From a phage, in the sequence record PZ445487.1: a stretch of 64,000 nt of DNA; one strand, written 5' to 3'. This document shows, one piece after another, positions 29,455 through 54,089 of this stretch; the stretch's first letter is position 1, and the number at the start of each line of letters is the position of its first letter. The notes beneath the pieces were generated by a model. That model made no database searches and was not told the DNA's origin. It was given only the letters and a program-made list of their open reading frames with translations. Position numbers and translations under genes: made by a program.

Positions 29455-31671
29455 ATGATTGAATCATTAACATTTAAGAATGCGGTTGCGACCGTCGCGC
29501 CGTCTAACCATGTAATCGTTGTGGATATCTCCGGTTCCATGTATCGTTCACTTCCAGAAGTCCGTAAGCATCTGAAGGAGAACCTGCCTTCCCTGGTGAA
29601 ACCGGAAGATACTGTGAGCATCCTTTACTTTTCATCTCGCGGTGATTTCGGAACGGTATTTGCCGGACGTCAGATTAACAGTGCAACTGATCTCAGTGAG
29701 ATCAATAATTTAATTGACCGTTTCCTGAAGCCTTCTGGTTGTACTGGTTTTGTTGAGCCGCTGAAATTGGCTGCGGAAACTGCCATTAGCTTGAATAAAC
29801 CTGGTTATGTTAATAACCTGGCATTCATGACCGACGGATATGACAACTGCTGGCGTTCTAATGAAATCCTGGATGCCGCTGAAGTACTGCCCAAAGCGTT
29901 TGATAACATTACCTTCATCGAATACGGTTGGTATTGTAATCGCGAACTGCTGGCGCTAATGGCAGAACGTTCTGGTGCGACCCACGTATTCGCCGAAGGC
30001 CAGAATGAATATCAGACCGAATTGGAAAACGTGCTAAAAACTTCTTCACCGAAAGTGGTGGTCGATGTTCCCCTGGTTTACACCCATGCCATTTATGTTG
30101 AAAATGGCGTGGCGACTGTTTTAGCTGTGCATCCTGATGAAGAGCACCCTATTGGCCACGTCAGCATCCCTGAAAGCGTTTCTCAGCTGTGGGTTGTAAA
30201 CCCCAACATGATCGACCAGCTGGATAATCTGGCAGACATCCAAGCGGCATACGTGCTGGCATTTTACGGCGTGTATACCATGGACGCAGATTTGGTTTGG
30301 GCTGCGCTGAAGAAAACGGGTGACGTCCGCTTCATCAAACAATACAGCAACTGTTTCACCAAGCAGGATTACTCCAACATCAAAGTCGATCTGACTCAGG
30401 CTATCGTAGACGAATCTCTGCGAGGAGTTGATGGCATCGATTATAATATGGTTCCGGCTGAAGACGCCACCACCATTGTTGATGTTCTGACGTATTTGGC
30501 TGAAGCAGATGTCTCTATCGTCACCAAGCATCCGCTATTCTCTTACAAGAGCATTGGGCGCGGTACTATACAAAAAGTTGACGACACCGAAGACAAGTTG
30601 GCCGAAGAGATTGCGAATGCGACTTCTAAAGAAGAGCGTAAAGCCCTGGCGCTCAAACTGGCCGAGCACGAAGATTGGACGCCGGAATTCAATCCAGCAG
30701 ATGATAAAGGGATTGTCCCGATCAGCAATTTGGTCTATAATTCAGAACGTCCTAACATCAGTGTGCAGACAGTTCAACACGGAACGGTTATTGTGCCTGA
30801 GTTTGTACAGAAGAAATATGAACTTCCTGAAGAGCTGGGAACCTGGCGTTATCGCAATTACACCATTGTCAAGGATGGTATCATCAACCTGAAAACAATG
30901 CCTATCACTGCAGATTCTCCGATTGTTCGGGCTAAGGTGGCACAGGATTTGACTGCCATGGGTGTTCATGTGTTTGGTGGGCCGGAAGTCTTCATTGTAA
31001 ATCTGGAAAGTGTCCCAATGGTTAACCGCGCCATGACAAAGAATATCAGTGCTGCTGAATTCTTTGCAGACAATGTGCGCCGTGAAGCATTGAAGGCAAA
31101 GCAAAAAGTTCTGAAATTCTACCGTGATGAACTGGTTGGCAAAGGCAACGCTACTGGTCTGGCTTCAAAATATGGCAAAGAAGCGGCTGATTTCCTGTCA
31201 GCAAACGGCATTCGCGACTATGGATTTTCACCGAAGACTTCTTCTGTAGAATCAACCGATGTCTATATGAGTCGTGAATTGAATGTGAAAATCAAAGGCG
31301 CATCTTCACTGCCGAGCATCGCGTCTGTTATCAAAAAACAGACGGACGGTAAAAAACTGAATGTCGCTGATCAGCTGATCGCTAATGCCCTGGCCGAATA
31401 CAATGCGTTTGTTAAATCGCCGATGATCACCAGCGTACCGGAAGAGACTCAGAAAAAGCTGATCGAAAGTTGGATTGGTGATGCAGCAAAAGCAGCTATC
31501 AACGAAGTTCGATCTCTGAACAAAACGCTGTCCAAGGTAGTTTATGGGATTGTTGCAGGCCATGGTTGGTTTACCGACCTGGATTTGGAAGAATCCACTA
31601 TGGATGTGGAAGTTGATGGGGTGAAATACACTGTCACTGCCGAACTGGCTGAAAAAGAAGTCAAAATCTAA
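29455..31671 (+). CDS. von Willebrand factor A (vWA) domain protein (738 aa)
   Basis: N-terminus carries the MIDAS motif in VIVVDISGSMY (DxSxS) with downstream T and D positions typical of vWA; about 550 aa of unassigned sequence follow. SD aagaagg before ATG 29455. Confidence 0.55.
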   Translation: MIESLTFKNAVATVAPSNHVIVVDISGSMYRSLPEVRKHLKENLPSLVKPEDTVSILYFSSRGDFGTVFAGRQINSATDLSEINNLIDRFLKPSGCTGFVEPLKLAAETAISLNKPGYVNNLAFMTDGYDNCWRSNEILDAAEVLPKAFDNITFIEYGWYCNRELLALMAERSGATHVFAEGQNEYQTELENVLKTSSPKVVVDVPLVYTHAIYVENGVATVLAVHPDEEHPIGHVSIPESVSQLWVVNPNMIDQLDNLADIQAAYVLAFYGVYTMDADLVWAALKKTGDVRFIKQYSNCFTKQDYSNIKVDLTQAIVDESLRGVDGIDYNMVPAEDATTIVDVLTYLAEADVSIVTKHPLFSYKSIGRGTIQKVDDTEDKLAEEIANATSKEERKALALKLAEHEDWTPEFNPADDKGIVPISNLVYNSERPNISVQTVQHGTVIVPEFVQKKYELPEELGTWRYRNYTIVKDGIINLKTMPITADSPIVRAKVAQDLTAMGVHVFGGPEVFIVNLESVPMVNRAMTKNISAAEFFADNVRREALKAKQKVLKFYRDELVGKGNATGLASKYGKEAADFLSANGIRDYGFSPKTSSVESTDVYMSRELNVKIKGASSLPSIASVIKKQTDGKKLNVADQLIANALAEYNAFVKSPMITSVPEETQKKLIESWIGDAAKAAINEVRSLNKTLSKVVYGIVAGHGWFTDLDLEESTMDVEVDGVKYTVTAELAEKEVKI

Positions 31672-31679
31672 ATTCAACT

Positions 31680-31700
31680 GGCGGGGAAACCCGCCTTCAT
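31680..31700 (+). terminator. Rho-independent terminator after the vWA gene
   Basis: ggcgggg-aaa-cccgcc then ttcatttt. Confidence 0.5.
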
Positions 31701-31714
31701 TTTGAGATATGCTT

Positions 31715-32026
31715 ATGTCAAACAAACCAACTTATGTTGAAGTAATGCGTGTTCTGGCTCAGTACGCTTGTGACAACCTGAACATGGAAACTTGGCGCAA
31801 CGGGGATCACAAGGACAAGTTTGATAACATTGATGATAATATCGATGCTTTAGCGCCGTTACGGGTTAAGAATGATCTCGGCGGTGACGATCTTGACATG
31901 ATTGAGCTGGTCATGGAAATCGAAGAAGAGTACGATGTAGAAATTAGTGACGAGTGGGTGGGTAAACATGGAGATGATCCTACCCTCGGAGAGTTAGCTG
32001 AACTCGTCGTTGCCCTGCGCAAGTAA
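31715..32026 (+). CDS. Acyl carrier protein-like protein with Asp in place of the phosphopantetheine-attachment Ser
   Basis: DLGGDDLDMIELVMEIEEEYDVEISDE aligns to the ACP core DLGADSLD(T/M)VELVMALEEEF...I.DE, but the modified Ser is D (codon gat). Confidence 0.5.
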   Translation: MSNKPTYVEVMRVLAQYACDNLNMETWRNGDHKDKFDNIDDNIDALAPLRVKNDLGGDDLDMIELVMEIEEEYDVEISDEWVGKHGDDPTLGELAELVVALRK

Positions 32027-32032
32027 CTGAAG

Positions 32033-32059
32033 ATCCCCAACAAACGTTGGGGATTTTTA
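32033..32059 (+). terminator. Rho-independent terminator
   Basis: atccccaac-aaac-gttggggat followed by ttttt. Confidence 0.55.
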
Positions 32060-32068
32060 CTTTTAGGG

Positions 32069-32098
32069 GTTTACTTCTATAAGGCAAATGCGTATTAT
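32069..32098 (+). promoter_or_regulatory. Sigma70-type early promoter
   Basis: -35 gtttac, 18-nt spacer, -10 tattat, about 50 nt upstream of the ATG at 32150. Confidence 0.45.
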
Positions 32099-32149
32099 TC
32101 AATAACTGGCGAACGATGGGTTCACCAGGTTGAAAGGTAAGATTATATC

Positions 32150-32389
32150 ATGAAGAACAAAATGGTAGAAACTTCAGTGGAGATTGATCGTAATTGGGGC
32201 TTGCTCCGCGCTAAAGGGTTCCGTCGTGTGTATGCGACCAAAGAAGTATATGCCCAGCGCCGCGATGTTATCATCAGCAAGAAGGGAAAAGATTGGGTTG
32301 CCGAAGAAGTCGATGTCGAAACAGGCGTCGTCGGAAAGGTGAAAGCCAAGGCCGCGATCCTCTTCGCTCTTCTGAAGCACATCAGTTAA
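32150..32389 (+). CDS. Hypothetical basic protein (79 aa)
   Basis: ORF with RBS aaggtaag upstream. Confidence 0.45.
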   Translation: MKNKMVETSVEIDRNWGLLRAKGFRRVYATKEVYAQRRDVIISKKGKDWVAEEVDVETGVVGKVKAKAAILFALLKHIS

Positions 32390-32405
32390 TTCTATAACTT
32401 AGGGT

Positions 32406-32448
32406 GGGGTATGATTACCCCGCCTATTTGAAATGAAGGAAATACATC
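32406..32448 (+). promoter_or_regulatory. Conserved 5' leader: hairpin plus atttgaaatgaaggaaatacatc
   Basis: Hairpin ggggta-tgat-tacccc followed by the conserved leader; nearly identical to the element at 32962..33007. Confidence 0.45.
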
Positions 32449-32955
32449 ATGACCGATCAACAAATTCAAGATTTATTTTACCTCGTCCATGATAAGTCCC
32501 ACATCATGCGCCCTGGCACTGTTTCCCCTGCCATCCGTGGTCTGGTGCAAGAATTACGCGAACCGCAGATGACCACACTTTATCGCGGGTTGCCTAAAGA
32601 GGACGTTGCGCGTTTGGAGATGATGTTTGAACGAGGAGACATGTTTCAGACATGGGATTCTTGTCTTAGTTTCAGCGAACTGAAGCATGTGGCCAAACAA
32701 TTTTCTAAATCGTATGGAACCAAAGCTGTTGCCCGCATTTGTTATAAACATCGAAACGGACTCCCAGAGGGGCTTAATGTCTTTGGTTCTCTAGAAAAAT
32801 TTGTGAACAAAGGCGATGAATCAGAAATGGATATGCTGGACTTGGCGTCCATGGAGAAAGAATGGATATTCTGTCAGCCTCGCGTCTTCCCAGTTTCAAG
32901 AAAAATGGCAACAGATGGGACGATGGTTTTTACCGTATCACTTGTTACCCTATAA
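32449..32955 (+). CDS. Putative ADP-ribosyltransferase (ModA/ModB-like)
   Basis: R-S-ExE arrangement: LYRGLP (Arg), WDSCLSFS (Ser motif), EKEWIF (ExE) in the order and spacing of T4 ModA as I recall it; 168 aa. Confidence 0.4.
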   Translation: MTDQQIQDLFYLVHDKSHIMRPGTVSPAIRGLVQELREPQMTTLYRGLPKEDVARLEMMFERGDMFQTWDSCLSFSELKHVAKQFSKSYGTKAVARICYKHRNGLPEGLNVFGSLEKFVNKGDESEMDMLDLASMEKEWIFCQPRVFPVSRKMATDGTMVFTVSLVTL

Positions 32956-32961
32956 ACCCAC

Positions 32962-33007
32962 GGCGGGGTATCTTTGCCCCGCCCATTTGAAATGAAGGAA
33001 CTATATC
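32962..33007 (+). promoter_or_regulatory. Conserved 5' leader: hairpin plus atttgaaatgaaggaactatatc (second copy)
   Basis: Hairpin ggcgggg-tatctttg-ccccgcc plus leader; the downstream gene also begins MTDQ. Confidence 0.45.
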
Positions 33008-33286
33008 ATGACAGATCAAAGAAGTATTGCTCGTTCGGAAATCAAAGATATTATACAGAGCAAAACCAACGAAACTCATGCTCAATCCAGAATGCTATCT
33101 CGATTTGTTGAAATTAAGTTTGACATTGAAGAGAATAACAATCGGAGAGCGCTGGAGGGAATGTTGGCGATTATCTTGGGCCATGTCACCAATTCAGCAT
33201 ACGACATGGATGATTTAACTCGTTTGTTGAACGCCCAGAATAACGTTGGGAATTCTGTTCGCGAATTGCTGTTTAAGTCCGAATGA
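33008..33286 (+). CDS. Hypothetical protein (92 aa)
   Basis: Shares leader and first four codons (MTDQ) with 32449..32955; the rest is unrelated. Confidence 0.45.
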   Translation: MTDQRSIARSEIKDIIQSKTNETHAQSRMLSRFVEIKFDIEENNNRRALEGMLAIILGHVTNSAYDMDDLTRLLNAQNNVGNSVRELLFKSE

Positions 33287-33323: not shown

Positions 33324-33773
33324 ATGTTCCTTACATCCTTTATTGACTGGATGAATATCATAAATGGCCTGAGGATTCCTGTTGGGAACCTCGGGCTTTC
33401 TCGTTCTTCTATGCCGCAAATCGATGCCGACAAACAAGAAGATTTTCACAAATATCTTGAAGACAACGGCGTGTCCATAGATGCTGCGCAAGTGCCCATC
33501 AAAATGCTTCGTCTTACCCAGAACGAAATCAATAAAATGAAGGTCTGGAAGATTATGAAGCAGATCAGAAATAAGAAGCCCATGGGTCGAGTTTGGGTGT
33601 CTTCTGACAATTACGTTGTTGACGGGTCTCACCGATTTGTCGCTGCGTTGAACATGGACGGCAAACAGCGCATGAAGGTCTACAAAGTTGATTTGCCAGC
33701 GATGGAATTTGTTAAACTCGCTAAACAGTTTCAGGGTGTGCGATACAGAACGGTCTCAGATTCGAGATACTAA
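33324..33773 (+). CDS. ParB/sulfiredoxin-like nuclease-domain protein
   Basis: YVVDGSHRFVAA matches the ParB N-terminal domain signature (x-DG-HR-xA). Confidence 0.45.
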   Translation: MFLTSFIDWMNIINGLRIPVGNLGLSRSSMPQIDADKQEDFHKYLEDNGVSIDAAQVPIKMLRLTQNEINKMKVWKIMKQIRNKKPMGRVWVSSDNYVVDGSHRFVAALNMDGKQRMKVYKVDLPAMEFVKLAKQFQGVRYRTVSDSRY

Positions 33774-33774
33774 T

Positions 33775-34050
33775 ATGGACGTCTATTCAGAACTTATCGA
33801 AATAGGAGCGAAACGTCATTTCGTAAACAAATATCTTTCGCTCATTTCTTCTTTTAGTCATTACCAAGGCGTCGGGGAGAAGCACCTATTGAAAGGTAAG
33901 ACGAGAGGGGAAGCCCTGAAACAAGTATTCGGTTCCAATGACGCAGAAATTTGGGCACAGGTTCGGCCAATTATTCTACGGTTGGATAACGGTTGGGACC
34001 CTTTAACTTGCGAAAAATGGGTTAATCGTTATGGGGTGGAATACCAGTAA
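33775..34050 (+). CDS. Hypothetical protein (91 aa)
   Basis: Internal ATG of track ORF 33688..34050 chosen to avoid overlap. Confidence 0.35.
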   Translation: MDVYSELIEIGAKRHFVNKYLSLISSFSHYQGVGEKHLLKGKTRGEALKQVFGSNDAEIWAQVRPIILRLDNGWDPLTCEKWVNRYGVEYQ

Positions 34051-54059: not shown

Positions 54060-54089
54060 CTTTACTCTTAAATAATCATGCACTATTAT
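54060..54089 (+). promoter_or_regulatory. Sigma70-type early promoter
   Basis: -35 ctttac, 18-nt spacer, -10 tattat; a hairpin (ggcgg...ccgcc, about 54101-54121) and the leader ...ggaattacatcATG follow. Confidence 0.45.

Follow-up and report, generated by a model that had tools for sequence, protein, structure and literature searches.

Gene orf140 of Escherichia phage Cba120 (CBA120_gp110) encodes a small protein, gp110, that almost certainly belongs to the Mod family and adopts the ADP-ribosyltransferase (ART) fold. It is, further, very likely an active arginine-specific enzyme that acts on host proteins. The gene lies at 32449-32955 (+) of the window, the whole 64,000-nucleotide stretch of phage DNA considered here (sequence record PZ445487.1), and the segment 31700-33300 around it is 100% identical, in reverse orientation, to Cba120 (Kuttervirus CBA120, Ackermannviridae; JN593240 / NC_016570), a well-studied phage of O157:H7 that is of interest for therapy and biocontrol. 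Phage T4 classically takes over its host by ADP-ribosylating host proteins, and one of the T4 enzymes, ModB, is of recent interest for its attachment of RNA chains to proteins. gp110 is a real but ordinary member of this known family: the Mod assignment is already known, since PHROGs, RefSeq and (for the orthologs) Pfam record it, and the identification adds nothing to public annotation. The new points are secondary: verification at the level of residues and fold, a reinterpretation of the leader that precedes the gene, the cassette polymorphism of the slot that it occupies, and a caution on the target implied by its product name. That name is "RNA polymerase ADP-ribosylase" in RefSeq and "hypothetical protein" in the original GenBank record.

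A preliminary description of this DNA, made from its letters alone, had proposed a 168-residue product with three segments in the order of R-S-ExE ARTs such as T4 ModA and ModB. The open reading frame (ORF) is present exactly as described there. Its ATG at 32449 is the first start codon past the in-frame stop at 32434-32436, the stop codon is TAA (32953-32955), an AAGGA ribosome-binding site lies 8 nt upstream of the ATG, and the opposite strand carries no competing ORF of more than 65 residues across 32449-32955. The quoted segments are likewise confirmed, with LYRGLP at residues 44-49, WDSCLSFS at 69-76 and EKEWIF at 136-141. The coding sequence and its motifs are as follows:

32449-32955, plus strand: coding sequence of the Mod-family ART, 168 residues, orf140 / CBA120_gp110, identified by its ORF and translation, 100% identity to orf140 of NC_016570, PHROG 832 and the ART fold.
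32488-32502, plus strand: codons H14-D15-K16-S17-H18, the N-terminal HDKxH motif, specific to the subfamily; K16 is also kept in T4, as ModA K48 and ModB K47.
32578-32589, plus strand: codons L44-Y45-R46-G47, the "R" motif on strand β1; R46 aligns with T4 ModA R72 and ModB R73, and R46 and G47 are invariant in a 30-sequence alignment.
32668-32676, plus strand: codons S74-F75-S76, the "S-x-S/T" motif on strand β2 (72-76 in the model); S74 aligns with ModA S96, ModB S99 and the STS of Vis.
32854-32862, plus strand: codons E136-K137-E138, the ExE catalytic motif; it aligns with ModA E162/E164, ModB E171/E173 and the EAE of Vis, and E138 is invariant in 45 distant relatives.

Taken alone, such a motif is weak evidence. 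The loose pattern R...SxS/T...ExE appears in 3.1% of gp110 shuffles and in 4 of 179 stop-to-stop ORFs of 120-260 residues from the whole Cba120 genome; it is not very specific, so that independent support is needed, and this support exists. The fuller pattern ([YFW]RG ... SxS/T ... ExE plus two hydrophobic residues) is found in 0.025% of the shuffles, and gp110 is the only ORF of the genome that has it.

The preliminary description had named a profile search against ART families and a structure prediction as checks. The first of these places gp110 in the T4 Alt/Mod group: PHROGs returns a single match, phrog_832 ("RNA polymerase ADP-ribosylase", E=1.1e-15), over residues 2-159. Homologs retrieved by a word-indexed search are Kuttervirus orthologs only, 52-98% identical to gp110, with R46, G47, S74, E136 and E138 invariant among them. 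An exhaustive hidden Markov model (HMM) search with the ortholog profile against 1.84 billion representative proteins extends the family to 59 relatives at E<=1e-3, mostly of 160-190 residues. When 45 of the 59 are aligned (mean column identity 25%), G47 and E138 are invariant and L9, H14, K16, L44, R46, S74, E77, A82, F85, E136 and W139 are at least 90% conserved; by this measure the YRG, S and ExE motifs, together with HDKxH, are the most conserved positions of the family. The same five residues that are invariant in the orthologs are invariant also across the 30-sequence alignment, which takes in T4-type ModB-like proteins.

The wider family connects to characterized enzymes. The 45-sequence profile reaches T4-type proteins named "NAD--protein ADP-ribosyltransferase modB" in UniRef (E=2.6e-18) and the solved arginine-specific ART Vis (E=1.7e-5), and it matches ExoT and ExoS too. 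The alignment with Vis is in register, pairing YRG with YRG, SFSE with STS and EkEWIF with EAEVLF. Among the individual members of the 45, 10 touch Pfam ADPrib_exo_Tox, 10 DRAT and 5 ART. The Pfam family PF26816 (Mod_ADP_RT) is precomputed on an ortholog 80% identical to gp110 (P0003), on modB-named proteins and on some other relatives, one such match being marked "weak". A single-sequence search of PDB sequences with gp110 gave only a chance match, to citrate synthase (E=0.75). Two distant relatives are multidomain proteins: P0016 (763 residues) has an N-terminal ART followed by a topoisomerase IB core, and P0038 (959 residues) has several ART domains and a WW domain. Their fusion partners give no functional hint for gp110. 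The HDKxH motif (residues 14-18) is nearly invariant in the small ART subfamily, whereas only its Lys is present in ModA and ModB; we know of no classical R-S-E toxin described with a motif of this type.

The predicted structure agrees with the profiles. An initial AlphaFold run on 13 close orthologs was poor (predicted local distance difference test, pLDDT, 67) and was not used; the run with the 30-sequence alignment, including ModB-like proteins, reached a pLDDT of 93.1 and a predicted template-modeling score (pTM) of 0.88. In this model strand 44-47 carries R46, strand 72-76 carries S74, and strand 138-142 begins with E138. The model has the hallmarks of the R-S-ExE clade: an ART split β-sandwich with the ordered and conserved Arg (β1), Ser-x-Ser/Thr (β2) and Glu-x-Glu before β5. 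The preliminary description had made its assignment depend on support for the ART fold, and with a pLDDT of 93 it is an R-S-E ART fold that the prediction gives. Foldseek against the PDB places HopU1 at the top (E=1e-6), then C3, ExoS, Tre1 and Vis. After gp110's own ortholog, the nearest predicted viral folds include T4-type models named "ADP-ribosylase", modB and modA (template-modeling score 0.67-0.72, E 1e-10 to 1e-9). From structural alignments to ARTs with bound nicotinamide adenine dinucleotide (NAD+), the motif residues are predicted to line one NAD+-binding pocket. Identities among the strong matches to bacterial R-S-ExE toxins (Vis, HopU1, Tre1, ExoS/ExoT, iota/C2-type, SpvB) and C3 exoenzymes are 7-18%, and these toxins, unlike gp110, are secreted or injected and carry targeting parts of their own. 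In C3 the motif is QxE and the modified residue is Asn; the ExE enzymes of the R-S-E clade transfer to arginine.

Comparison with the T4 enzymes (modA and modB from NC_000866) gives the closest characterized relative. hhalign joins the family profile to T4 ModB with a probability of 99.2% (E=2.1e-19), the 162 aligned columns covering almost the entire protein, and to T4 ModA with a probability of 97.6% (E=3.6e-12). The R-S-ExE order that had been likened to that of ModA and ModB holds residue by residue: the proposed Arg, Ser and ExE align with ModB R73, S99 and E171/E173 and are invariant, or nearly so, in the family. The corresponding positions are:

gp110 K16: ModA K48, ModB K47.
gp110 R46: ModA R72, ModB R73.
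gp110 G47: ModA G73, ModB G74.
gp110 S74: ModA S96, ModB S99.
gp110 E136/E138: ModA E162/E164, ModB E171/E173.

The ExEW signature is common to gp110 and ModB (EQEW) and is not found in ModA (EQEV). ModB resembles gp110 as a small single-domain protein of the same family with the same R-S-ExE residues and the conserved Lys of the N-terminal helix (K47, equivalent to K16). It differs in length (207 residues against 168, gp110 lacking approximately the first 27 ModB residues), in having only the Lys where gp110 carries HDKxH, and in setting: gp110 has neither a modA-modB tandem nor T4 synteny, and its phage belongs to the Ackermannviridae rather than the Straboviridae. ModA, also of the same family, with R72, S96 and E162/E164 aligned and an identical RefSeq product name, is more distant. 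T4 Alt is a large multidomain protein packaged in the virion; by comparison, gp110 consists of the catalytic domain alone, encoded in a putative early-type unit, and it belongs to the Mod family, not to Alt/VIP2. The relationship of gp110 to ModB is real but remote. A bona fide Mod-type enzyme with intact catalytic residues in Cba120 would mean that the device also serves phages beyond the T4 group, here in the form of one optional gene.

These comparisons bear on the product name. ModA ADP-ribosylates both α subunits of RNA polymerase (at Arg265). ModB has other targets (S1, EF-Tu and trigger factor), RNAylates S1 and L2, and does not modify RNA polymerase. Because gp110 is closer to ModB than to ModA, "RNA polymerase ADP-ribosylase" appears to be a family-level transfer, and the name should be read with caution: it presents RNA polymerase as the target, and nothing in the sequence relationships favors that target in particular. 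For the catalytic Arg there is a T4 precedent: in ModB, described as having an R-S-EXE active site, the R73A substitution eliminates ADP-ribosylation as well as RNAylation (PMC10468400).

The gene is best explained as encoding a mono-ADP-ribosyltransferase of one domain, from the R-S-ExE clade (Pfam Mod_ADP_RT, PHROG 832), that would be competent in catalysis. NAD+ would be bound through R46 on β1 and S74 on β2, and E138, with E136, would move ADP-ribose to arginine side chains of host proteins. Unmodified host RNA polymerase probably transcribes the gene from the conserved σ70-like promoter at 32070-32098, in a unit where it stands second, between orf141 and orf138; transcription from a promoter of the σ70 type by unmodified polymerase would bring expression soon after infection. 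The likeliest role would be reprogramming of the host transcription or translation machinery, comparable to that of ModA on RNA polymerase α and of ModB on S1, EF-Tu and trigger factor, because this phage lacks an RNA polymerase of its own and employs a late sigma factor of the T4 type. For the specific class of target, transcription or translation machinery, the chances may be put at about even. We infer the enzymatic activity, the arginine specificity, the early timing and the class of target from these relationships.

The proposed transcription unit is delimited by the following features:

32028-32065, plus strand: intrinsic terminator after the acyl-carrier-protein gene (14-bp stem and T run), with compensatory stem changes in four other Kutterviruses.
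32070-32098, plus strand: σ70-like promoter, TTTACT-17-TATTAT; both hexamers are conserved and the spacer varies among Kutterviruses.
32150-32389, plus strand: orf141, 79 residues, PHROG 804, first gene of the putative unit.
33008-33286, plus strand: orf138, 92 residues, PHROG 4458.

Across five Kutterviruses the terminator stem and both promoter hexamers are conserved and the loop and spacer sequences vary, which argues for function of this promoter-terminator module. The promoter lies about 350 bp upstream of the ART gene, before orf141, and is the probable start of the orf141-ART-orf138 unit. Together with the gene neighborhood, its conservation makes early expression dependent on the host polymerase a reasonable inference. 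Elsewhere in the window the exact TTTACT-N17-TATTAT occurs only at 54061-54089 (+), possibly another promoter of this kind.

The ART gene sits among replication and early-to-middle genes, in an extended run of genes on one strand that also includes small genes of unknown function; the head genes are more than 20 kb away. The gene order is vWA protein, acyl carrier protein, orf141, ART, orf138 and orf137, followed further on by spanin, superinfection exclusion and helicase genes. Among the genes of Cba120 are those for a late sigma factor of T4 type and for a regulator of late promoters, and none for an RNA polymerase; the phage therefore depends on the host polymerase throughout infection. An HMM search of ORFs of at least 50 residues in six frames of the whole 157-kb Cba120 genome found no second member of the ART family (next best E=0.025), and no other ADP-ribosylase is annotated in Cba120. 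T4, by comparison, has Alt, ModA and ModB; Cba120 has one ART, with no modA-modB tandem and no Alt-like second enzyme. Where an ART toxin is paired with immunity, an ADP-ribosylhydrolase or macrodomain partner gene is expected next to it. Among orf141, orf138 and orf137 there is no ADP-ribosylhydrolase, macrodomain or immunity partner, only PHROGs of unknown function and no Pfam match.

Some of the neighbors have features of their own. The region 29455-32026 (+) encodes a protein of 738 residues with an N-terminal VWA domain (Pfam, E=3e-7) and then the acyl carrier protein (PHROG 4154, E=1e-56), a pair conserved across Ackermannviridae. In related phages the product of orf137 (33324-33773, +; 149 residues) carries the annotation "putative structural protein", which refers to Dickeya phage Limestone. 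This protein has a DGSHR-like stretch recalling ParB/sulfiredoxin-type motifs, and its only match, with none in Pfam, is to positions 316-467 of the 740 in PHROG 2859, of unknown function.

The gene had also been described as sitting behind an early-type leader, consistent with a host-takeover role. That leader does exist in the sequence, as a direct repeat of 65 nt with 83% identity that brackets the ART gene (32396-32460 and 32955-33019) and has no other copy in the window, but it contains no recognizable promoter and is not itself evidence of early expression. The repeat has three parts: a hairpin, the element ATTTGAAATGAAGGAA with the ribosome-binding site, and ATG ACx GAT CAA. The two copies are:

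32396-32448, plus strand: upstream leader copy, with a hairpin at 32402-32425 and then ATTTGAAATGAAGGAA with the ribosome-binding site; the repeat extends into the first four codons of the ART gene (MTDQ).
32955-33007, plus strand: downstream leader copy, with a hairpin at 32962-32983, ahead of orf138, which also starts MTDQ; identified by repeat comparison and folding.

The upstream hairpin folds with -20.9 kcal/mol (z=-4.4) and the downstream one with -19.2 kcal/mol (z=-2.6). No σ70-like hexamer pair is called within the repeat; with this, only about 27 nt from hairpin to ATG, and a motif present only twice in the window, the leader was rejected as a promoter.

Comparison among related phages shows the leader to be that of orf138, the conserved gene that owns it in genomes without the ART. 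Phage allotria has a single leader directly before orf138, and its slot is empty. In Cba120 and SJ3 one leader precedes the ART gene and another stands between it and orf138. Phage barely carries the ART gene and no hairpin downstream of it, and in aagejoakim, moki, PLL1 and other phages the slot holds denV (pyrimidine-dimer glycosylase). The allotria leader resembles a recombinant of the two Cba120 copies, which would be equally compatible with insertion and with deletion by recombination between the repeats. The pattern suggests that cassettes are gained or lost in the orf141-orf138 slot by recombination at the leader. The slot resembles the promoter-stem-loop cassettes of T4-type phages, with no promoter seen in the Cba120 repeat. 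The ART protein is present in 78 phage records and the flanking DNA in 222-283 Ackermannviridae records, so gp110 is an accessory gene carried by only about a quarter to a third of these relatives. The natural variants of the slot (empty, ART or denV) are ready-made controls for the contribution of the enzyme.

Several observations count against gp110 as an active Mod-type ART that acts early on the host machinery. Local Pfam-A and NCBIfam scans of gp110 and four orthologs returned nothing, even at E<=10, the Pfam-A copy apparently lacking PF26816 or giving no match to it, and pairwise BLASTP between gp110 and T4 ModB is weak (21% identity, E=0.022); membership in the Mod family consequently rests on the profile and structural evidence. 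RefSeq implies an RNA polymerase target, yet of the two T4 enzymes gp110 is nearer to ModB, whose targets do not include RNA polymerase. The promoter matches the consensus at only 9 of 12 positions, and the two strong hairpins flanking the gene could attenuate its transcription. No biochemical, genetic or transcriptomic work on gp110 or any Kuttervirus ortholog was found in the literature. Finally, being absent from many close relatives, gp110 cannot be central to the infection programme. Part of this evidence would also fit a chance motif match or a degenerate, inactive remnant, given the absence of a direct Pfam or NCBIfam match and a loose motif that arises in about 3% of shuffles. Profile, structure and conservation are, however, concordant, and the catalytic residues are invariant in orthologs down to 52% identity. 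As far as computation goes, this concordance excludes the chance-motif explanation, and a remnant or chance match is extremely improbable.

Other explanations accept the fold and differ on what the enzyme does. Like ModB, gp110 might take NAD-capped RNAs as well as NAD+ and join RNA chains to arginine residues in ribosomal or OB-fold proteins of the host. This activity is documented for ModB (PMC10468400), the closest characterized homolog by E-value and near full-length alignment, and the shared EQEW-type signature points the same way. Yet no known feature of sequence or fold separates RNAylating enzymes from plain ARTs, and the low identity to ModB and the shorter N-terminus of gp110 speak against it; RNAylation is possible, but improbable. 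Similarly doubtful is the idea that the ARTs of about 160-190 residues with HDKxH form a distinct compact Mod-like branch, traded as a cassette at the leader repeat in alternation with denV, whose substrate is neither that of ModA nor that of ModB (a host defense or stress protein, or transfer of NAD-capped RNA). A role in counter-defense, with gp110 inactivating a host immunity or toxin protein as Alt does with MazF and AcrIF11 with the CRISPR complex, would suit an accessory gene in a polymorphic slot, a pattern typical of an arms race, and phage ARTs with anti-defense roles exist (PMC12421852; PMC9503650). It is somewhat less probable still: gp110 has no sequence similarity to AcrIF11-type ARTs, its nearest relatives are Mod proteins, and there is no obvious correlation with the host, as phages of Salmonella, E. 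coli and Shigella show both presence and absence of the gene. Packaging in the virion and injection with the DNA, so that the enzyme acts before phage gene expression in the manner of T4 Alt, is very improbable. About 44% of phage ARTs are in contexts suggesting packaging (PMC9503650), and the nearby orf137 carries its structural annotation. Against this, gp110 consists of the catalytic domain alone and lacks any N-terminal extension or domain for targeting, its gene lies in the replication/early-gene block far from the head genes with a σ70-like rather than a late promoter upstream, and its family is not Alt/VIP2. Just as improbable is that gp110 modifies nucleic acid, like pierisin, Scabin and DarT, or is only an NAD+ glycohydrolase, even though some ARTs of the R-S-E clade modify DNA guanine and ARTs commonly hydrolyze NAD+ as a side reaction (PMC9503650). 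An arginine-directed ART of the Mod family acting on host proteins is the preferred interpretation of gp110.

The DNA around the slot varies in other ways. Salmonella phage SJ3 (L003 949-1179), Se_AO1, SPTD1 and JN03 have an extra ORF of about 76 residues, in an insertion of about 356 bp, between the acyl-carrier-protein gene and orf141. The insertion corresponds to a site near window positions 32027-32150, with the terminator-promoter module just 3' of the extra ORF and 5' of the orf141 homolog, and it is a second polymorphic point in the region. The G+C content of the gp110 cassette is 46.8%, against 42-45% in the flanks, a difference that is uninformative about acquisition. Further downstream, orf136 (33889-34050, +), of 53 residues, matches only a C-terminal part, positions 232-283 of the 343, in a homing-endonuclease PHROG (E=2e-5), and may be the remnant of a homing endonuclease adjoining the variable slot.

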